Shown here: one piece after another, positions 26,219-38,003 of the stretch
Layout of the letters: every line of letters begins with the position of its first letter
How positions within the stretch are numbered: the first letter of the stretch is position 1
Assembly: GCA_963666975.2 (NCBI GenBank)
Contig: CAXVYR010000003.1
Location: forward strand, 1,304,577 to 1,368,576
Origin: Terriglobia bacterium
Lineage (GTDB): Bacteria > Acidobacteriota > Terriglobia > 2-12-FULL-54-10
Direction: 5' to 3'
DNA length: 64,000 nucleotides
Program-made: the position numbers and the translations under genes
The notes under the pieces: generated by a model
What the model was told of the DNA's origin: nothing
What the model saw: only the letters and a program-made list of their open reading frames with translations
Database searches by the model: none

Positions 26219-27598
26219 TCAATGGGCAGCCAAAGAACAGATGGCCGCTGCCAGCGACTCATCCTGCTCCGGAAGGACGGTGCGGAGGTCCAGCAAGACA
26301 GCGCCCGATTCTACCCTTACAATCACCGGAGGTTGCCAAGACCGCAGGCGGCCTTCCAGCAACGTGGCATTTTCCCCGTCATGCTGCAGGGCTATCAGGC
26401 GGGTGGGGAGCGTTTGCCCCGGGGCCGAGCCGCCTCCAATCACCGATTCGCCGTCCTTCAGCTCCAGACGCAATGGCCCGTTCTGACAGCGCGCACAGGA
26501 TTCCAGCAATCGCTTGGCGCGGCCCTCCAGTTCCGAAACCGGAAGATCGATCATCCGAAAGACCGGAATTTGGTGGAGCTGATCTTGCAAATAAGCCAGC
26601 AAGGTGGTTTCCAGGACCGCATAAGTCAGCTTGTCCACCCGCAGCGCCCGAAACAACGGGTTGCGGCGAATTTGCTGGACAAAATCCTTCTTCCCGGCGA
26701 TCACGCCGGCCTGCGGCCCGCCCAACAGCTTGTCACCGCTGAAACTCACCACATCCACACCCGCGGCCAGGCTCATCGCAACGGTGGGTTCCTCGGCAAT
26801 GCCCCGGGAAGCCAGCGATACCAGACAACCGCTGCCCAGGTCTTCAAACACCGGGATTCCGGCTTCCCTGCCCAGATCGACAACCTCATCGAGCGCCGGT
26901 TTTTCCGTGAATCCCGTGATCCGGAAGTTGCTGGGATGCACGCGCAGGAGAAGTTTGGTTTTCTCGCTGAGCGCATTCCGGTAGTCGGCAATGCGCGTGC
27001 GGTTGGTGGCGCCCACCTCGCGCAGCACCGCCCCGCTCTTCCGCATGATGTCCGGGATGCGGAACGCCTCCCCGATTTCAACCAACTCTCCGCGCGATAC
27101 GATGACCTCGCCGCCCTCGGCCAGCGTGTTGAGAGTAATCAGCACGGCCGCTGCATTGTTGTTCACTACAATCGCGCCGGGGGCGCCCAGCAACTCTTGC
27201 AAGCGCAGGGACACATGCACGTCCCGCTCTCCTCTGCGGCCGGCAGACAGGTCGTATTCCAGATTGGAGTATTGGGTGGCCACCTCCAGGGCGTGTTCCA
27301 GCGCCTCGCGGGCCAGCGGAGCGCGCCCCAGATTGGTGTGAAGAACAACCCCAGTGGCATTGATGACGGGACGCAGCGAGCAAGCGGCCGCCTGTTCCAC
27401 GGCCCCGCTGATGCGGGTTTCGAGAAGCGTCTCCGACAGGGGCTCGGTCCGGGGCCACCGGCCATCGCGGATTTGCTGGCGGAAACCGGCCAGCACCTCC
27501 CGCACGCGGACGGTCACAAACTTCCGTCCCAGTTTTTCTCCCAGCTCCCGGATTACCGGCCGATTCAAGATTTCTTCCACAGCAGGAATCTGCCGCAA
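26219..27598 (-). CDS. selA: L-seryl-tRNA(Sec) selenium transferase
   Basis: VINATGVVLHTNLGRA, VNNNAAAV, SRGELVEIG..FRIPD, EVGATNRT, EDLGSG, FSGDKLLGGPQAG. The frame stays open upstream to about 27679, so the start may be earlier. Confidence 0.96.
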   Translation of the reverse strand: MRQIPAVEEILNRPVIRELGEKLGRKFVTVRVREVLAGFRQQIRDGRWPRTEPLSETLLETRISGAVEQAAACSLRPVINATGVVLHTNLGRAPLAREALEHALEVATQYSNLEYDLSAGRRGERDVHVSLRLQELLGAPGAIVVNNNAAAVLITLNTLAEGGEVIVSRGELVEIGEAFRIPDIMRKSGAVLREVGATNRTRIADYRNALSEKTKLLLRVHPSNFRITGFTEKPALDEVVDLGREAGIPVFEDLGSGCLVSLASRGIAEEPTVAMSLAAGVDVVSFSGDKLLGGPQAGVIAGKKDFVQQIRRNPLFRALRVDKLTYAVLETTLLAYLQDQLHQIPVFRMIDLPVSELEGRAKRLLESCARCQNGPLRLELKDGESVIGGGSAPGQTLPTRLIALQHDGENATLLEGRLRSWQPPVIVRVESGAVLLDLRTVLPEQDESLAAAICSLAAH

Positions 27599-29184: not shown

Positions 29185-30528
29185 TTGATTCAGCGAATGA
29201 CGGTGAACGCAATCTTTCTGGTCCGGCGATATATGCCGGCGCCTTACCTGCTAGCCCTGGTCCTCACTTTCGTCGCCGCAATTCTGGCAATGACCATCAC
29301 ACGAACGCCGCCGTCGGAGGTGGTGGACCACTGGTATCGCGGGCTCTGGGATATCCTGACCTTCACCATGCAGATGGTACTGGTGTTGATGTGCGGCCAT
29401 GCCTTGGTGGATGCCCCCTTGGTCAAGCGCGGCCTGGATTGGTTCAGCACTCGTCCTAAAACGGAGCGGCAGGCGGGGGTGCTCGTTTTTTTAATCGGCT
29501 GGGCGACCGCTCTGTTCAATTGGGGCTTCTGCCTGGTGGTGGTCGGCGTCATGGTGCGGGAGATTCCCCGCAGGTTGCCGGGAGTATCCAAGGGATACCT
29601 GGCAGCCGCCGGATATACCGGCTTTGCGGTGTGGGCATCGGGCCTCTCCAGTTCCATTGCCCTGGTCACGGCAACGGACGGAAGTCCGCTGAATATCGTC
29701 GATCAGATGGCCCATCAGACTTTCTCCCTGCGCGAGACCCTGTGGACCCCCTATAACATTTTTGGCGTGGCCGGCATGCTGGTCCTGATGCCGCTGCTGT
29801 TCTGGCGCATTCCTATCTCCAAATTAGAGCCGCAGACGCCGGACCTGGAGCAGCCGCCCTCTTCGGTTGAGCCGGTTGCGGCAGAAGGAGCGAAGGCGGC
29901 GGAACGTACCCCGGCTGAAAAAATCGAGCAGAGCCGCGTGGTCACATTTCTGTTAGTGCTGATGAGCATGGGATATGTCTATACACGGTTCCGCCAGGGC
30001 ACATTTCATCTGGATTTGAATATGATGATCTTTCTGCTGCTGGTGCTCGGGTGGATTCTGCACGTCACACCGATCCGTTACATGCAGGCCTTTCATGCCG
30101 GAGCCCGCGCCGCCGGTCCGCTGCTGCTGGCCTACCCTCTCTATGGAGGGATCATGGGCCTGATTCGAGATACCGGCCTAGCCGACTGGTTTGCGCAACT
30201 GTTCGTATCGTTCTCGACCGCAGAAACCCTGCCCTTTTGGTCTTATGTCAGCTCCAACATCATCACCCTGTTCGTTCCCTCCGGCGGAGGACACTGGGCA
30301 GTCCAAGGACCTGTGATGGTGAAGGCGGCCATAGAGATGGATGCCTCCTTGCCGAAGACCGCCATGGCGGTTGCCTTCGGCGAACAAACCGCCAACCTGT
30401 TGCAGCCCTTTTGGGCGCTCCCGATCGTCAGCATCGCCGCTCTGAGCGTGCGCGAGATGATGGGCTACTGTCTGGTGGCGCTGGCCGTCGCCGCTCCCTT
30501 GTTTGGAATTGCGTTACTGCTTTTCTAG
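29185..30528 (+). CDS. Short-chain fatty acid transporter (AtoE/TIGR00366 family)
   Basis: F.MQM.L.L..G, NWG, GLSSS, YGGIMG, VPSGGGHWAVQGP, NLLQPFWALP. Confidence 0.9.
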   Translation: MIQRMTVNAIFLVRRYMPAPYLLALVLTFVAAILAMTITRTPPSEVVDHWYRGLWDILTFTMQMVLVLMCGHALVDAPLVKRGLDWFSTRPKTERQAGVLVFLIGWATALFNWGFCLVVVGVMVREIPRRLPGVSKGYLAAAGYTGFAVWASGLSSSIALVTATDGSPLNIVDQMAHQTFSLRETLWTPYNIFGVAGMLVLMPLLFWRIPISKLEPQTPDLEQPPSSVEPVAAEGAKAAERTPAEKIEQSRVVTFLLVLMSMGYVYTRFRQGTFHLDLNMMIFLLLVLGWILHVTPIRYMQAFHAGARAAGPLLLAYPLYGGIMGLIRDTGLADWFAQLFVSFSTAETLPFWSYVSSNIITLFVPSGGGHWAVQGPVMVKAAIEMDASLPKTAMAVAFGEQTANLLQPFWALPIVSIAALSVREMMGYCLVALAVAAPLFGIALLLF

Positions 30529-31152: not shown

Positions 31153-31401
31153 ATGTTTATTTCAATGCAAAATGCAAGGATTTGTCTTGACTGCGATACC
31201 GTATTTGAAGAAACGAACTGCCCTCGCTGCAGCAGCGAAAGCTTCCACCCCCTGAGCAGATGGATTCGGCCTGCCATAGCCGCCGAACCGGTTGCCTTGG
31301 CCAAGAAAACAAGAAATGCCTCCCTCTTGTTGCTGGCTTCCGGGATTGCGTTTGCGGCTTGGCATTTTTTCACAAAGCCTGACAACAACTCGCCGAAGTG
31401 A
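31153..31401 (+). CDS. Small zinc-ribbon protein with C-terminal TM helix
   Basis: CLDCD...CPRC.S...PLSRW followed by a hydrophobic segment. Confidence 0.7.
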   Translation: MFISMQNARICLDCDTVFEETNCPRCSSESFHPLSRWIRPAIAAEPVALAKKTRNASLLLLASGIAFAAWHFFTKPDNNSPK

Positions 31402-31510
31402 TTTTTTACGCCGCCACCCTTCGCGCCGGAACATTCAGTGGCTGGCGCAAGTTCCCATTCTCCTCCTGCGCCCATCCGGGAACTTCTGTGCTACACTGCC
31501 CCAAAATTGC

Positions 31511-33229
31511 ATGTTGCAACATCTGCACATTGAGAATTACGCTCTGATTGAGTCCCTGGACCTGGAGTTCCACCCCGGCTTCAATCTGCTGACGGGGGAA
31601 ACAGGAAGCGGCAAGTCGATTATCGTGGACGCCGTGGGGCTGCTTCTGGGCGAAAAGGCGTCGGCGGAGATGATCCGCGGCGGAGCAGACCGGGCGAGGA
31701 TCTCCGCAGTTTTTTCCTTTTCACCATCTCCCGCTTCCGGGCATGCCGAGCACCGCCTCCATCCGCTGAAGCAGCTTCTTGCCGAAGCGGGGCTGGCCAG
31801 CCAGGAAAAGGAAGACCTCATCCTGCAACGAGACCTTTTGCTCGGCGGGAAGTCCCGAGCTTTTGTGAATCATCAGCCTGCCACCGTAGCGATGCTCAAA
31901 TCTTTGGCTCCTTTTCTGACGGAGGTCCACGGCCAGAATGAGCAGCAGGAGCTATTTTCCCCGCACGTTCAACTGGAGATGCTCGACCGCTTCGGCGGCC
32001 TCGCCGCTCTGGCAGCCACTGTTCGAGAGCAGTTTAACCTTTGGAAAGACCTCCGTCGCCAGCAGGAAGGCTTGGCTAAGCAGGCGCAAGAGCGGCTGCG
32101 GCAGATGGACCTGTGGCAGTTTCAGAAACGCGAGATCGAACAAGCCGCAATCACTCCCGGCGAAGATCAGCGGTTGGAAGAGGAAAAACTGCTGCTCGCC
32201 CATGCAGCGAAGATACAGGCCAGCCTGGCCGCTTCATTTGATCTGCTTTATGACTCCTCCCACTCCGCTGTCGCCTCCACGGCGTCTGCCAGCAAGAAGC
32301 TGGAGGAGGTGCTGCCCTATGACGCCACCTTGAAACCGCTGGCCGAGGCCTTGCAGTCGGCCCAGGTCTCGCTGGAAGACGTTTCGCTGAGCTTGCGCGA
32401 CCGATTGTCCGGGATCGAGTCCAACCCTCAACGGCTGGAGGAGGTGGAAAACCGGCTTGCCTTGCTGGAACGGCTCAAGAGAAAGTACGGTCCGACGCTG
32501 GAGGAGGTGCAAGCTTACGGGGAGCAGGTGTCGGCGCAAATCCAGGAGACGGAATCGAGCGAGGCGCTCAGCCAATCCCTCGCAGCAAAGCTTGATGAGA
32601 CCGCGGCTGCTTATCAGAAGAATGCTGAGGAACTGTCCCGCAGACGGCAGAAGGCTGGCCGGGAACTGAAAGCGGATGTCGAAAAGGAATTGAAGGCGCT
32701 GGCCATGAAGGGAACGGTGTTTGAGGTCCGGTTCACAACCTCGGCCGCCGAAGCGGATTGGCGCGCCTCGGGAATCGACCGGGCCGAATTTCTGATCTCC
32801 CCCAACCCCGGAGAGCCGCTCAAGCCCCTGGCCCGGATCGCCTCCGGCGGGGAGATTTCCCGCACGATGCTGGCGCTGGAAACCGTCCTCGACGCCCGGC
32901 GGTGTTCCGGCGGCACAGACCATGCGCTTATTTTCGACGAGGTGGACGCCGGCATCGGGGGGCGCGCCGCCGAAACGGTGGGCAAAAAGCTGCGGCAGTT
33001 GGGGAAACACCGCCAAGTGCTTTGCGTAACCCATCTGCCACAGATCGCCAGCTTCGCGCATCACCACTTCCGTGTGGAAAAAAGCGAGCGCAACCGGCGG
33101 ACAACCACCCAGGTCAAATATCTCGACGGAGAGCAACGCACGGCGGAATTGGCGCGGATGCTGAGCGGCAGCCAGATTACGGATGCCGGAATGAAACATG
33201 CGGCACAGTTACTGAAGGCGAATTCGTAG
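31511..33229 (+). CDS. recN: DNA repair protein RecN
   Basis: MLQHLHIENYALI, LTGETGSGKS, HGQNEQ, SGGEISR, IFDEVDAG, CVTHLPQIA; start at ATG 31511. Confidence 0.96.
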   Translation: MLQHLHIENYALIESLDLEFHPGFNLLTGETGSGKSIIVDAVGLLLGEKASAEMIRGGADRARISAVFSFSPSPASGHAEHRLHPLKQLLAEAGLASQEKEDLILQRDLLLGGKSRAFVNHQPATVAMLKSLAPFLTEVHGQNEQQELFSPHVQLEMLDRFGGLAALAATVREQFNLWKDLRRQQEGLAKQAQERLRQMDLWQFQKREIEQAAITPGEDQRLEEEKLLLAHAAKIQASLAASFDLLYDSSHSAVASTASASKKLEEVLPYDATLKPLAEALQSAQVSLEDVSLSLRDRLSGIESNPQRLEEVENRLALLERLKRKYGPTLEEVQAYGEQVSAQIQETESSEALSQSLAAKLDETAAAYQKNAEELSRRRQKAGRELKADVEKELKALAMKGTVFEVRFTTSAAEADWRASGIDRAEFLISPNPGEPLKPLARIASGGEISRTMLALETVLDARRCSGGTDHALIFDEVDAGIGGRAAETVGKKLRQLGKHRQVLCVTHLPQIASFAHHHFRVEKSERNRRTTTQVKYLDGEQRTAELARMLSGSQITDAGMKHAAQLLKANS

Positions 33230-33345
33230 CCCGCCGCAATCTCTCTCCTGAGCGTTCGGGATCCGCTTGCTGAGAGCCTGCCCTGAGCCATGTCCTGAGC
33301 AAAGCCGAGGGAGAAGTCGAAGGGAGCTTGCCGAAGGGCGCGCGG
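33226..33345. repeat. Cluster of nested small palindromic repeats after recN
   Basis: gagcctgccctgagc[catgtcctgagcaaagccgaggg]..gtcgaaggg..gagcttgccgaaggg; reverse complement of the hairpin nested at 807-831 and 28050-28073. Confidence 0.6.
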
Positions 33346-33412
33346 CTCTGACTACACATTCATTGTGAAAGTATAATAGCATTGTGAAAGTGTATTAGAG
33401 CCGTTGCCAGCC

Positions 33413-33442
33413 TTGACAGTGGGAACCGCCTGTTCGTATAGT
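33413..33442 (+). promoter_or_regulatory. Sigma70-type promoter of the putative selenoprotein operon
   Basis: TTGACA (33413-18), 18-bp spacer containing the dyad GAAC-N5-GTTC, TATAGT (33437-42). Confidence 0.65.
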
Positions 33443-33467
33443 TAAATCGAGGATAGGCAAAACCGTC

Positions 33468-33788
33468 ATGGAATCTAATCCGAAACGCGCAGGCGTTGTG
33501 GCCATTGCAGCCGCTCTGCTGGCGCCCAGTTGATGAGTGCTTCCTCAAGTCCTGGCAGGACTTGGCTTATTGTCGCTGTTGAGCGCCAGCTGCCTGTTCT
33601 GGCTGGAACGGTTGCAGCCGGTCTTCATCACGATGGCGGTGGGCGCGCTGGCCTACGAGGGTTGGCTGGTGCATCGGCGTCCCCGGTTCCTCCGGACACG
33701 GGGAATTCTGGCCATCCTTTGGGGGAGCATCGTCATCAATATATTAGTGCTGGGAGCCTGGGTGGTGCTGTGGTTTCGTTATCGATGA
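33468..33788 (+). CDS. Putative selenoprotein: MerT/MerF-like membrane protein with tandem Sec-Sec
   Basis: MESNPKRAGVVAIAAALLAPS-TGA-TGA-VLPQVLAGLG...LERLQPVF...; the TGA pair (33531-33536) sits where MerT has (A)CC(LGP.VL..LG); 8-bp hairpin immediately downstream. Confidence 0.8.
33545..33565 (+). promoter_or_regulatory. SECIS-like hairpin
   Basis: CAAGTCCT-GGC-AGGACTTG; G-containing loop 17-20 nt after the two UGA codons. Confidence 0.65.
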
Positions 33789-33827
33789 CGGTTTCCAGGA
33801 TCGGTTTGGTCCACTGAGGAGATGCAA

Positions 33828-34304
33828 ATGAGCCACGTGAAGTCGCTTTGCCTGCTGTTCCTGCTATCGTTGCTCTCTGCGGTGGCCGCCCCGGCTCAGG
33901 TGGAGACGGTTGCGGCGCGGGCCAGCGGCATCACCTGAGCATCCTGCGCGGTGATCATGGAGATCGCCCTCAGACGCCTGGATGGCGTTGATCAAGTGAC
34001 AATCAGCATTCAACAGCAGGCCCTGTCAGTGACCCTGAAACCAGGAAGCAGGTTCGATCCCCAGGGCATCCGGGACGCCGTAGCTCGGGCCGATGTGTCG
34101 ATTCTCCGCTTCTACGTCGAGGCGCGCGGACAGGTGGAGCAAAAGGGGGACGAGCGTTACTTCGTCGCCGGCAAAGACCGCTTCCTGCTGGTCGCCTCTC
34201 GCGATGTTCCCGCCGGAGAGCCCATTTGGGTCAACGCCTTGGTTGACGACAACACCAACCCCCTCCAGATGAGAGTAAACGAACACAAACCGCTCGAGCC
34301 ATGA
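33828..34304 (+). CDS. Putative selenoprotein: secreted heavy-metal-associated (HMA/MerP-like) protein with UxxC
   Basis: RBS GAGGAG, signal peptide MSHVKSLCLLFLLSLLSAVAAPA, then GIT-TGA(33936-38)-ASC-AVIMEIALRRLDGV, matching the HMA GMTCxxC...L..L.GV motif. Confidence 0.85.
33935..33973 (+). promoter_or_regulatory. SECIS-like hairpin
   Basis: Upper stem GGTGATC-ATGGA-GATCGCC (33950-68); lower stem CTGAG/CTCAG includes the UGA. Confidence 0.65.
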
Positions 34305-34747
34305 GCGCCTCCGCACAAAGCGACAAGTCAGAATCCGCACGATATGCCGGACTGTTCCGGAGTCCTGTCCTAGACCACTTTCACCATCCGCGTAATGTCG
34401 GTGTCGCCGCCGGACACAACCAGTCCTTTCTGGAGCAAGACAACCCGTGGCAGGTCCGGTTGCGATTCACCCTGCGTGTGGAGCAAGACGGCATCGCGGA
34501 GGTAAAGTTCCAGGCGCAAAGTTGCGTCACCACCACGGCCTCGGCCAGCGCGCTGACCGTGATGGCCCAGGGAAAACGTGTGGAGGAGGCGTTGGCCATC
34601 ACTCCCGAACAGCTTTCGAGGGAGCTGGGAACGGTTCCCCCCGAAAAGATGTACTGCTGCCAACTGGCCGTGGCAACGCTTCAGAAAGCTTTGCGGTCGC
34701 CGGAACAGGCCAGTTCCGAGACGCCCGCAGAGGTGAACAAGGAGTGA
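34301..34747 (+). CDS. IscU/NifU-N-like scaffold protein, atypical
   Basis: VLDHF.HPRNVG, I.EVKF...SC....ASAS, GK.VEEA, PPEKMYCC..LAV; the first conserved Cys (NP.CGD) is replaced by NPWQV. Confidence 0.88.
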   Translation: MSASAQSDKSESARYAGLFRSPVLDHFHHPRNVGVAAGHNQSFLEQDNPWQVRLRFTLRVEQDGIAEVKFQAQSCVTTTASASALTVMAQGKRVEEALAITPEQLSRELGTVPPEKMYCCQLAVATLQKALRSPEQASSETPAEVNKE

Positions 34748-34941
34748 TTACTGCGGAACAAATCGGCGGCATGACGGTCCTCGATGCGCTGGACCTGTCA
34801 CCGGAGGTGCGGCGCTACCTGCTGCGCCGGCTTCCCGAGATATGATGCTGGCCGGGGGAAACCCTCGAAGCGGTCGCTTTGAAAAAGAAGATGGACCTGG
34901 ACGCGCTGGTCCGCATGATTCAGACCATCCTCGCTAAATAG
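34744..34941 (+). CDS. Putative selenoprotein: small DUF1858/ScdA-N-like protein with U-C
   Basis: GTG overlaps the IscU-like stop, RBS AAGGAG; MITAEQIGGMTVLDALDLSPEVRRYLLRRLPEI-TGA(34843-45)-CWPGETLEAVALKKKMDLDALVRMIQTILAK; the ETLE.A....DLD.L half of the domain lies after the TGA. Confidence 0.72.
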
Positions 34942-35482
34942 CGAAGATTTCCTTGATCGGCGCGCGAAAACCGGGGAGGACTGGCCCACCATCCAATTCC
35001 TGGTCGGCAGTGAGGACTTTTACATCCTGGAGAGAACGATAAACGGTGACTCGCTGATTGGCGGGATCAACCACCCAAACCAAAGGGACTCCGGCCGTCA
35101 GGTACTCCTCGACCTTTTTTTGGATTTCGCTGGCCGTGTCTTCCGGCGAGAGCACCTCGACAGCCAAATCGGGAGGAAACTCGGCAAACTTCTCAGGAAT
35201 GCCTTCCTTGGCGATACGGTCCTTCGAAATGAACGCCACATCGGGAGCGCGCAGCGTGTCCGGGTTCCGGCTGAGGTAGAAGCCGCCCTCCGGGCCAACG
35301 AGGCCACACCTGTTCTCCGTCACATAGTTTCCCAATAACCGATTCAAATTGGAAACAACCGCAGCATGTCGTATTCCCACAGGCGTCATCGGAATCAACT
35401 CTCCCTTGGACAACTCATAGCGGCTGCCATCGGCCACGATTTTCCAGAGGTCTTCACCGGTCAGAAGCGTTTTTGTGCGCAT
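34934..35482 (-). CDS. Uma2 (DUF820) family endonuclease
   Basis: RYEL..G.L, RAPDVAF, PDLAVEVLSP, K..EY...GV..VWVVDP, LPGF. Confidence 0.93.
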   Translation of the reverse strand: MRTKTLLTGEDLWKIVADGSRYELSKGELIPMTPVGIRHAAVVSNLNRLLGNYVTENRCGLVGPEGGFYLSRNPDTLRAPDVAFISKDRIAKEGIPEKFAEFPPDLAVEVLSPEDTASEIQKKVEEYLTAGVPLVWVVDPANQRVTVYRSLQDVKVLTADQELDGGPVLPGFRAPIKEIFAI

Positions 35483-36513: not shown

Positions 36514-37023
36514 ATGAGACAAAAACAAGACGACAGGGGGGCGGTCGAGAAGGCCGTCCGGGAGATCAAACGCAGGACGCGGCGCAGGTTCAGCCCGGAA
36601 GACAAAATCCGCATTGTATTGCAGGGACTTCGCGGCGAGGACAGCATCGCGGAGCTGTGCCGCCGCGAGGGGCTGCACCAGAACCAGTATTACCGCTGGA
36701 GCAAGGAGTTTCTGGAGGCTGGCCGCAAGCGGCTGGCGGGCGACATAGACCGTGAGGCAACCAGTGGCGAAGTCAAGACTCTGCGGGAGCAGGCCGTACA
36801 GCTCATCTCGCTTGCCGTAGATACCGTGTCCCGGCACCTCCAAAAACGAGCTGAAAGAGGCCCTGGCCGAGGCTATGCTGGAAAATCGCCTGCTAAAAAA
36901 AAGCGTGATCGGGGATGGGGAGGAACATACATGAGATACCCTGCCTCGGAGAAGCTGGAGATCATGCTGGAAAATCGCCTGCTAAAAAAAAGCGTGATCG
37001 GGGATGGGGAGGAACATACATGA
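36514..37023 (+). CDS. Transposase OrfA (HTH), corrupted by an insertion and a tandem duplication
   Basis: RRRFSPEDKIRIVL...SIAELCRREG...YYRWSKEFLEAG; extra sequence at about 36804-36852 and an 89-bp duplication. Confidence 0.75.
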   Translation: MRQKQDDRGAVEKAVREIKRRTRRRFSPEDKIRIVLQGLRGEDSIAELCRREGLHQNQYYRWSKEFLEAGRKRLAGDIDREATSGEVKTLREQAVQLISLAVDTVSRHLQKRAERGPGRGYAGKSPAKKKRDRGWGGTYMRYPASEKLEIMLENRLLKKSVIGDGEEHT

Positions 37024-38003
37024 GATACCCTGCCTCGGAGAAGCTGGAGATCATCTGCACGGTGGAGCAATCTGCCCTGGGGGTGCGCCGGACGCTGCAG
37101 CAGGTTGGCATTCCCAGATCGACGTTTTACAACTGGTACGACCGCTATGTGTCGGAAGGCTTTGATGGGCTGGAAGACAAAAAACCCGATCCTGGCCCTG
37201 TCTGGAACAAGGTGCCGGAGGAGATAACTCAGCAGTTGGTGACGTTAGCCCTGGCCGAGCCCGATCTGTCGTCACGCGAGCTGGCGGTGCGTTTTACCGA
37301 GGAAAGGCGGTATTACCTTTCTGAATCGACGGTTTACCGCGTCCTGAAAAGCCATGACCTGATTACCGCGCCAGCCTTTATTGTCCTGAAAGCGGCGGAA
37401 CGGTTCGCCAACCCGACCACGGCGGTCAACCAGCTCTGGCAGACCGACTTCACCTACCTGAAAGTCATCGGTTGGGGCTGGTTCTACCTGTCCACGGTGC
37501 TGGACGACTTCTCGCGCTATATCATCGCCTGGCGGCTGTGCAAAACCATGAGCGCAAGTGACGTCTCGGCCACGTTGCGGGATGCTTTGCAAGCCACCGG
37601 CCTCGACCGCGTGGGCGCCCGGCACAGACCTCGCCTCCTGAGCGACAACGGGCCGTGCTACGTCTCTTCCGAACTGCAATCATGGCTGGCAGAAAACAGC
37701 GTGCCGCATACTCGCGGCAAGCCCTATCACCCCATGACGCAGGGCAAGATCGAACGCTGGCACCGAACTCTGAAAGACCGCATCCTGCTCAACAACTATT
37801 ACCTGCCAGAAGAGCTGGAGCGGCAGATCGATGCCTTCGTCAACCACTACAACACCAACCGATACCATGAAAGCCTGAACAACCTGACACCGTATGACGT
37901 TTTTACAGGCCAAGGCAGTGCCATCCTGCAAAAACGGGATCGCATCAAAGAGAAAACTATGATCTTAAGAAAACGGTTGCACTTCAAAAGAAGGGCAGCC
38001 TAA
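37020..38003 (+). CDS. Transposase OrfB (rve/DDE)
   Basis: WQTDFT, LDDFSR, LLSDNG, PMTQGKIERWH, YN..RYHESL. Confidence 0.9.
   Translation: MRYPASEKLEIICTVEQSALGVRRTLQQVGIPRSTFYNWYDRYVSEGFDGLEDKKPDPGPVWNKVPEEITQQLVTLALAEPDLSSRELAVRFTEERRYYLSESTVYRVLKSHDLITAPAFIVLKAAERFANPTTAVNQLWQTDFTYLKVIGWGWFYLSTVLDDFSRYIIAWRLCKTMSASDVSATLRDALQATGLDRVGARHRPRLLSDNGPCYVSSELQSWLAENSVPHTRGKPYHPMTQGKIERWHRTLKDRILLNNYYLPEELERQIDAFVNHYNTNRYHESLNNLTPYDVFTGQGSAILQKRDRIKEKTMILRKRLHFKRRAA

Follow-up and report, generated by a model that had tools for sequence, protein, structure and literature searches.

The window analysed here, a stretch of 64,000 nucleotides (nt) from a Terriglobia bacterium (GenBank assembly GCA_963666975.2, contig CAXVYR010000003.1, positions 1,304,577 to 1,368,576), carries on its forward strand a MerT-like coding sequence (CDS) with two consecutive in-frame TGA codons, followed directly by a MerP-like partner gene with a single internal TGA. 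When TGA is read as selenocysteine (Sec, U), the MerT-like CDS at 33468-33788 translates into 106 residues, MESNPKRAG...LLAPS-U-U-VLPQVLAGLG...WFRYR, and the codons around the site are GCG CCC AGT TGA TGA GTG CTT CCT CAA GTC CTG GCA GGA CTT GGC. A third TGA at 33786-33788 closes the frame and, since TGA is thus the gene's own stop, the codon is not globally reassigned. Downstream of the codon pair lies a hairpin resembling a bacterial selenocysteine insertion sequence (SECIS) element. The features of the MerT-like gene are the following, with UGA1 and UGA2 denoting the first and second codons of the pair and bp standing for base pairs.

33413..33442, + strand: sigma-70-like promoter, TTGACA-18 nt-TATAGT, 25 nt 5' of ATG 33468 (11 of 12 consensus matches; hexamers kept in a relative)
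33468..33788, + strand: MerT-like CDS with predicted Sec22-Sec23 and a TGA stop (sequence, profile matches, orthologue alignments)
33531..33533, + strand: UGA1, predicted Sec22 (TGA in 93 of 93 distinct CDSs; aligns with the first Cys of the MerT Cys-Cys pair)
33534..33536, + strand: UGA2, predicted Sec23 (TGA in 93 of 93 distinct CDSs; aligns with the second Cys of the MerT Cys-Cys pair)
33546..33564, + strand: SECIS-like hairpin with an 8-bp stem and a GGC triloop at 33554-33556 (fold, frozen synonymous sites, pairing in orthologues)
33591..33593, + strand: TGC codon of the invariant Cys42, a possible third ligand or resolving residue (column invariant in alignments)

The two stem arms, CAAGTCCT (33546-33553) and AGGACTTG (33557-33564), form eight perfect pairs. 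The base of the stem is separated by 12 nt from UGA1 and by 9 nt from UGA2, and the loop begins 20 nt past UGA1 and 17 nt past UGA2. The original prediction, made from the sequence without any database search, had described the in-frame TGA TGA within APS-U-U-VLP (33531-33536) and the perfect stem with its GGC loop 20 and 17 nt from the two codons (33546-33564), and both descriptions were exact.

Conservation of the UGA pair and of the reading frame

Orthologues of the MerT-like gene were collected from 24 distinct genomic and 80 metagenomic loci (104 in all), which yielded 93 distinct full CDSs. The TGATGA hexamer was found in all 93, and Cys occupied neither position in any of them. The comparison of CC, CU, UC and UU states proposed in the original prediction thus returned UU for every distinct orthologous CDS, and CC in 10 distant relatives. 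At the invariant Cys42, 73 of the CDSs use TGC, 20 use TGT and none uses TGA. The lack of a Cys form at either Sec position is unusual for bacterial selenoprotein families.

The same picture was obtained at several sampling depths. An order-level survey detected the MerT-like gene in 8 of 14 genomes, including all six of those at least 90% complete, in every case with two internal TGAs; orthologues within the order share 61-93% protein identity with the query, and on the evidence of the six good genomes the family appears to be near-core in this order of soil Acidobacteriota. A pattern scan of 185,579 species genomes, in which one of the two patterns was able to match a Cys-Cys form, located the Sec-Sec family almost only in genomes of uncultured Acidobacteriota: 23 loci were recovered, nearly all from uncultured bins of this phylum, and each of the 23 reads PS-UU-[VIL]LPQ. 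The patterns used for the metagenome scan sit 3' of the UGA pair and are hence blind to its state; the best 80 of 271 matches were analysed and all 80 loci carry TGATGA. Even sampling of the phylum (401 genomes) gave, beyond the window's own genome, only weak, stop-free matches.

In a public protein collection, calls of 83 residues accounted for 115 of the 120 matches listed (156 in total), and the sole call of 106 residues reads WW at the site, which corresponds to the same two TGAs under another translation table. The gene is therefore annotated in public databases as a truncated protein and the family is invisible in current annotation. The WW call is the one item that would favour a pseudogene, a sequencing error or a genome using TGA as a sense codon, an explanation refuted by the comparative data: the hexamer is identical in 104 independent loci, its flanks are under purifying selection, TGA terminates the MerT-like gene itself as well as several of its orthologues, and the genome holds a complete Sec machinery (see below). 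In line with the view of the original prediction that two independent nonsense mutations would be much less parsimonious, these alignments indicate that the UGA pair is not damage.

The codons on either side of the pair were compared in the 24 distinct orthologous CDSs by the proportions of synonymous (pS) and nonsynonymous (pN) differences. Codons 2-21 gave a pS of 0.653 and a pN of 0.275 (pN/pS 0.42), and the codons 3' of the hairpin a pS of 0.631 and a pN of 0.272 (pN/pS 0.43), from which we conclude that the upstream part evolves as protein under equal constraint. The 21 upstream codons, whose lack of conservation was to have counted against the prediction, are therefore as constrained as those downstream.

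These values bear on a quite improbable alternative with two products, in which the first 21 codons would form a leader peptide closed by a double stop, ahead of an 83-residue protein started at GTG 33537, and the hairpin would serve regulation or coupling. The annotation produced by gene callers takes this form (the 115 of 120 listed matches), and the codon following UGA2 (33537-33539) is GTG in 74 of the 80 metagenome loci. GTG makes up 98% of the Val codons right after UGA2, though Val is four-fold degenerate, while the next two codons vary freely; this preference could reflect either a context need for the decoding of UGA2 or a fall-back start codon. The remaining metagenome loci carry GCG (twice) or GCA, GTT, CTG and ATG (once each), and some genomic orthologues have ATC or CTG. 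Because ATC, and in 4 of the 80 metagenome loci GCG, GCA or GTT, are non-start codons, a general start at GTG 33537, the other outcome named beforehand as adverse, is excluded. The upstream 20 codons are moreover under the constraint seen in the remainder of the protein, alignments with the MerT profile and with Cys-type homologues continue through the UGAs and place CC opposite UU, and the 83-residue product would be deprived of half of helix 1 and of the metal site. The promoter also precedes ATG 33468: the consensus scan scored 11 of 12 matches at 33413-33442, as against a mean of 0.2 sites in shuffles, and both hexamers are identical in a relative of the same genus.

The hairpin and the selenocysteine machinery

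A single nucleotide-constrained hairpin was found 3' of TGATGA. Among 40 conserved degenerate codon columns in the 24 sequences, the only columns using one codon throughout are 28, 29, 31 and 32, all of them in the stem; with 93 sequences, the top codon reaches at least 90% in seven columns (24 and 27-32) and does not exceed 0.84 in the other 36. Correspondingly, pS is 0.015 in codons 27-32 versus about 0.64 elsewhere (0.63-0.65). Stem pairing is retained in 544 of 544 base-pair cells of 68 distinct 42-nt sequences. Five of the stem pairs are invariant and three vary on one side only, in 10 cells, all of which are changes from A-U to G.U or from U-A to U.G. As every stem variant is wobble-compatible, a shuffle control of the pair count is uninformative. 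The loop of the orthologues is GGC, or GGU where Ala30 is replaced by Val, and the extra ninth T.G pair seen in the window (33545/33565) is not conserved. The putative RNA-level function of the hairpin thus rests on frozen synonymous sites and on solely pair-preserving changes, not on classical covariation. An Rfam scan of 33200-34400 returned chance-level matches only (E >1).

A consensus scan flagged 33545-33565, together with the T-rich stretch after it, as terminator-like in the window, and the hairpin might accordingly be viewed as an intrinsic terminator, an attenuator or another RNA element unrelated to Sec. We judge this very unlikely. The T-rich tail is not conserved, many orthologues having GGA GTC GTG or GGC GCG CTC after the stem; the element resides inside a conserved CDS, with a position and a GGN loop typical of the SECIS elements of the genome; and both DNA and RNA contigs continue through it. 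The RNA contigs are metatranscriptome contigs of a relative, about 92-95% alike, that were obtained from two runs and span 33459-33631 and 33468-33566, covering the start, the UGAs and the hairpin. They are a weak hint of transcription, strand, ends and level being invisible in contigs and DNA carry-over being possible.

The genome encodes the components required for Sec insertion. Profile search identified selB (371.8 bits), and we found a tRNA-Sec (72.8 bits, anticodon TCA), a selA gene within the window (listed in the next section) and selD, itself with one TGA. Within the order, selB scored above its cut-off in 8 of 8 genomes carrying the MerT-like gene. Genome-wide (both strands, 4.23 Mb), only 241 hairpins combine a GGN triloop with a stem of 7 bp or longer, which makes the one behind the UGA pair more than a chance occurrence; 35 of the 241 are preceded by a TGA at 15-24 nt. 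With a stem of 7 bp and a GGN triloop, such hairpins follow the UGA of SelD with a loop distance of 20 nt, that of an AhpC/TSA protein (WUGAC) with 21 nt, that of a rhodanese (UQGGGR) with 17 nt and that of a CYCXC (seleno)protein (NF041379, 112.5 bits, over cut-off) with 23 nt. The MerT-like hairpin shares the design of these other SECIS elements, its stem being slightly longer (8 versus 7 bp). Its loop distances of 20 and 17 nt both fall inside the 17-23 nt range of the genome, which is the main argument for one element serving both codons. Together with the invariance of TGATGA in the 93 CDSs and the presence of only one constrained hairpin, this supports the earlier proposal that a single hairpin serves both UGAs. 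Searches for selenoproteins could in addition use this design (7-bp stem, GGN triloop at 17-23 nt from a UGA) as a lineage-specific pattern.

The main rival to double recoding, which we regard as unlikely, is that only one Sec is inserted. The Sec-tRNA from UGA1 would re-pair on the next codon in a +3 hop over a slow stop, or a near-cognate tRNA (Trp or Cys) would read one of the UGAs. The two adjacent codons are identical and permit such in-frame re-pairing, and decoding a double UGA in competition with release factor 2 is expected to be inefficient. On the other hand, the homologues carry a residue pair (CC) here; one UGA would be enough to make the product in question, yet none of the 93 CDSs has lost or replaced a TGA; and both loop distances are in the working range of the other SECIS elements of the genome.

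The partner gene, its neighbourhood and the relationship to MerT

The remaining features of the locus are listed below.

26240..27598, - strand: selA, selenocysteine synthase, about 6 kb upstream of the selenoprotein gene pair (563.5 bits, over cut-off; Pfam SelA 465.8 bits)
33828..34304, + strand: MerP/HMA-like periplasmic partner of 158 residues with a signal-peptide-like N-terminus and the motif GIT-U-ASC (profiles; synteny)
33936..33938, + strand: UGA of the partner, predicted Sec37, at the first Cys position of CxxC (U/C alternation among orthologues)
33950..33968, + strand: SECIS-like hairpin of the partner, 7-bp stem, AUGGA loop starting 18 nt after the UGA (fold, orthologue pairing)
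34301..34747, + strand: NifU_N/IscU-like gene, its ATG overlapping the TGA stop of the partner (Pfam NifU_N 84.4 bits)

The partner carries a C-terminal extension of about 85 residues, and its profile scores are all below cut-offs: 22.5 bits for HMA, 41.4 bits for NCBIfam UxxU_metal_bind (NF041115, cut-off 95) and 37.8 bits for MerP. Of 23 genomic loci, 22 have it directly 3' of the MerT-like gene, and it was detected in 71 of the 80 metagenome loci. At the first motif position, 12 of the 23 genomic loci encode U and 10 encode C; among the 80 metagenome loci, 38 encode U and 33 encode C, and in the other 9 the partner or its motif was not detected or lay outside the covered sequence. Stems of at least 6 bp occur at the expected position in 11 of 13 U-forms (5 bp in the other two) versus 0 of 8 C-forms (two of which have 5 bp), and the stems of the U-forms vary on both arms with pairing kept. 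A hairpin that is present with Sec and absent with Cys tracks the UGA within the same operon, as expected of a SECIS element. The alignments thus identify the partner gene as a predicted, so far unannotated selenoprotein (UxxC) that switches between Sec and Cys among orthologues.

The NifU_N/IscU-like gene occurs downstream in some orthologous loci only and hence stands outside the conserved cassette; it probably belongs to the operon of the cassette in this genus only, and the overlap of its ATG with the stop of the partner suggests translational coupling. Just 5' of the cassette promoter, at 33361-33398, a 19-nt repeat is present in two tandem copies that are 89% alike, and only one similar copy exists in the relative of the same genus. 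The neighbouring genes are of ordinary kinds. A RecN-like SMC_N protein (31292-33226, +) ends 240 nt before the cassette. The window further contains a short-chain fatty acid transporter (29185-30525, +), a Uma2-family putative endonuclease (34937-35482, -) and, at 42602-42839 (-), adjacent tRNA-Ile(GAT) and tRNA-Ala(TGC) genes, which are the usual spacer pair of ribosomal RNA operons. An 89-nt sequence is present as two perfect tandem copies (36875-37052) inside a pair of IS3-like transposase genes (HTH_Tnp_1 and rve), across their overlap and a stretch of eight A; the duplication may be real or an assembly artefact. NHL-repeat proteins were seen beside the cassette in 4 of 12 orthologous loci, which may be chance.

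The Pfam MerT profile (PF02411) matches residues 4-71 of the MerT-like protein straight across both UGAs (26.4 bits, E 7.7e-6). In 10 distant MerT-like proteins of the Cys type, encoded by other genomes of the phylum, an invariant CC stands opposite U22-U23, and P26 is conserved. The match to the vicinal CC of MerT that the original prediction had seen therefore holds in the alignment with these Cys-type proteins and does not extend to the profile score, which is below cut-off; the MerT-like protein is a distant relative of the MerT superfamily and not a member by score. Three membrane helices are predicted, and we draw nothing further from the structural model. A profile search of PDB sequences gave 0 matches at E up to 10.

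Proposed decoding and comparison with known systems

On the comparative evidence, the locus very probably contains a single selenoprotein gene in which both codons would be recoded. The complete interpretation, namely a 106-residue, three-helix protein of the MerT superfamily in which the vicinal Cys-Cys of helix 1 has become Sec-Sec through recoding directed by the hairpin at 33546-33564, is one that we hold to be probable. SelB and Sec-tRNA(Sec) would recode both adjacent UGAs with the single hairpin. With UGA1 in the A site, the loop would be positioned 20 nt downstream; one translocation would bring UGA2 into the site and leave 17 nt to the loop. Either the original SelB or another one would then have to bind the hairpin anew, or take up a further Sec-tRNA there, in the space of a single elongation cycle, and two or three basal stem pairs may open when UGA2 sits in the A site. 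At the level of function, the co-transcribed periplasmic (U/C)xxC protein and the membrane Sec-Sec site could use ligand exchange to carry a soft, thiophilic metal ion through the inner membrane. We favour such a housekeeping relay of a soft metal ion over mercury resistance, with less confidence than we place in the recoding.

Several observations weigh against parts of this interpretation. Concerning the recoding, the 9-nt spacing between UGA2 and the stem is shorter than the 10-16 nt found at every single-UGA gene of the genome. The hairpin folds at -10.9 kcal/mol with a z of -1.8, 7 of 200 shuffles being as good, and a 76-nt stretch prefers another minimum-energy structure, shorter stretches recovering the hairpin; given this modest folding energy, thermodynamics alone is insufficient and the weight lies with the comparative evidence. 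Regarding the covariation that the original prediction had proposed to look for, all 544 cells pair and the variants are of the G.U type only, with no two-sided compensatory change in the hairpin among the 68 distinct sequences. Two successive contests with release factor 2 should, in addition, cut the yield. Concerning the protein, its PF02411 score of 26.4 bits is below the cut-off of 32.9, its NCBIfam NF033560 score of 26.5 is below 130, and no specific NCBIfam model matches it. Classical MerT has a further Cys pair in the cytoplasmic loop that follows helix 2; this pair is missing here, the loop RRPRFLRTRG being Cys-free in 22 aligned members, whereas several Cys-type relatives have Cys in that loop. 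The AlphaFold model built from a 22-row alignment is poor at the site, with a mean predicted local distance difference test (pLDDT) score of 62.9 and values below 50 for residues 17-38. Concerning the role, merA over cut-off is absent from the genome (best score 401 versus 454 bits), and a Pfam scan of 55 flanking open reading frames in 12 loci revealed no conserved neighbour beyond the partner and no merR or merA neighbour, the conserved unit being the two-gene cassette only. Selenolate-mercury binding is, furthermore, expected to be very tight, which speaks against a simple hand-over relay for mercury.

A more far-reaching proposal, to which we give about even chances, is that Sec insertion in bacteria can proceed processively, with one hairpin holding a SelB that serves two successive A-site codons and reloads as the hairpin moves 3 nt closer, and that the product belongs to an obligate selenoprotein family whose membrane-embedded vicinal diselenol/diselenide is irreplaceable by sulfur. 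If true, the protein would perform chemistry beyond a MerT-type thiol relay, such as an eight-membered diselenide redox switch or metal capture at very low concentration. Apart from this proposal, the finding adds a predicted selenoprotein family that is unusual in never using Cys at its Sec positions. A natural, widely conserved UGA-UGA with one hairpin moreover provides a test system for the positional tolerance of SelB and SECIS, for SelB staying bound or reloading, and for a ribosome that twice beats release factor 2.

Bacterial Sec insertion is taught as the combination of one UGA and one nearby hairpin at a constrained distance, and the bacterial cases known to us pair one UGA with one hairpin. 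As in SelB/SECIS recoding of the E. coli fdhF type, the hairpin described here is located inside the CDS, has a G at the start of its loop and, at 20 and 17 nt, is within the 16-37 nt given as the bacterial rule for the distance from UGA to apical loop (PMC10778597). It differs from that type by the two adjacent UGAs per hairpin, as against one.

Classical MerT/MerP proteins (PF02411, TIGR02052) share with the cassette three predicted helices, a vicinal pair in helix 1 followed by Pro, and, encoded next to them, a secreted HMA protein whose motif ends in xxC. The cassette departs from them in its scores below cut-offs, in having no cytoplasmic Cys pair and no merA/merR linkage, and in the extra invariant Cys42 and the extension of the partner. 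MerT-family selenoproteins have a row in Table 1 of a 2022 survey (PMC9312934), and none of the motifs listed in that table for 87 prokaryotic selenoprotein families is UU. A small MerT selenoprotein group with a Cys-Sec motif is described in a 2022 preprint (10.1101/2022.07.06.499078). The known MerT-family selenoproteins are alike in belonging to the same superfamily, in placing Sec in the vicinal pair of helix 1 and in their tie to an HMA/CopZ/MerP-type module; judged by description, they are set apart by having one Sec (Cys-Sec), compared with predicted Sec-Sec in every member here. MerT selenoproteins as such are already known, and what is new, within the literature searched, is the probable Sec-Sec variant within the MerT superfamily. 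The MerT/CopZ fusion-like selenoprotein NF045683 is distinct as well, the MerT-like protein scoring 14.2 bits and the partner 27.7 bits against a cut-off of 375, and the two being encoded here by separate genes. For the partner, the closest families are NF041115 (UxxU) and MerP, with which it shares the HMA fold and Sec as the first residue of the metal motif; unlike NF041115, it has a UxxC motif (CxxC in about half of the orthologues) and an extra C-terminal domain.

Literature phrase searches, partly noisy and with subscription journals uncovered, did not find a bacterial case of consecutive or tandem Sec or UGA, nor a vicinal Sec-Sec in a membrane helix. The sole printed consecutive Sec-Sec that they brought up is eukaryotic: the algal PDI_e with its GUGUU motif, which Jiang et al. 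(2020, PMC7539508) put forward as the first selenoprotein to contain two Sec in a row. As far as described there, PDI_e resembles the MerT-like protein in obtaining an adjacent Sec pair from consecutive TGA codons, and differs from it in that its SECIS element is part of the 3' untranslated region and acts independently of distance, whereas the element described here has to work for both codons from a short, fixed distance.

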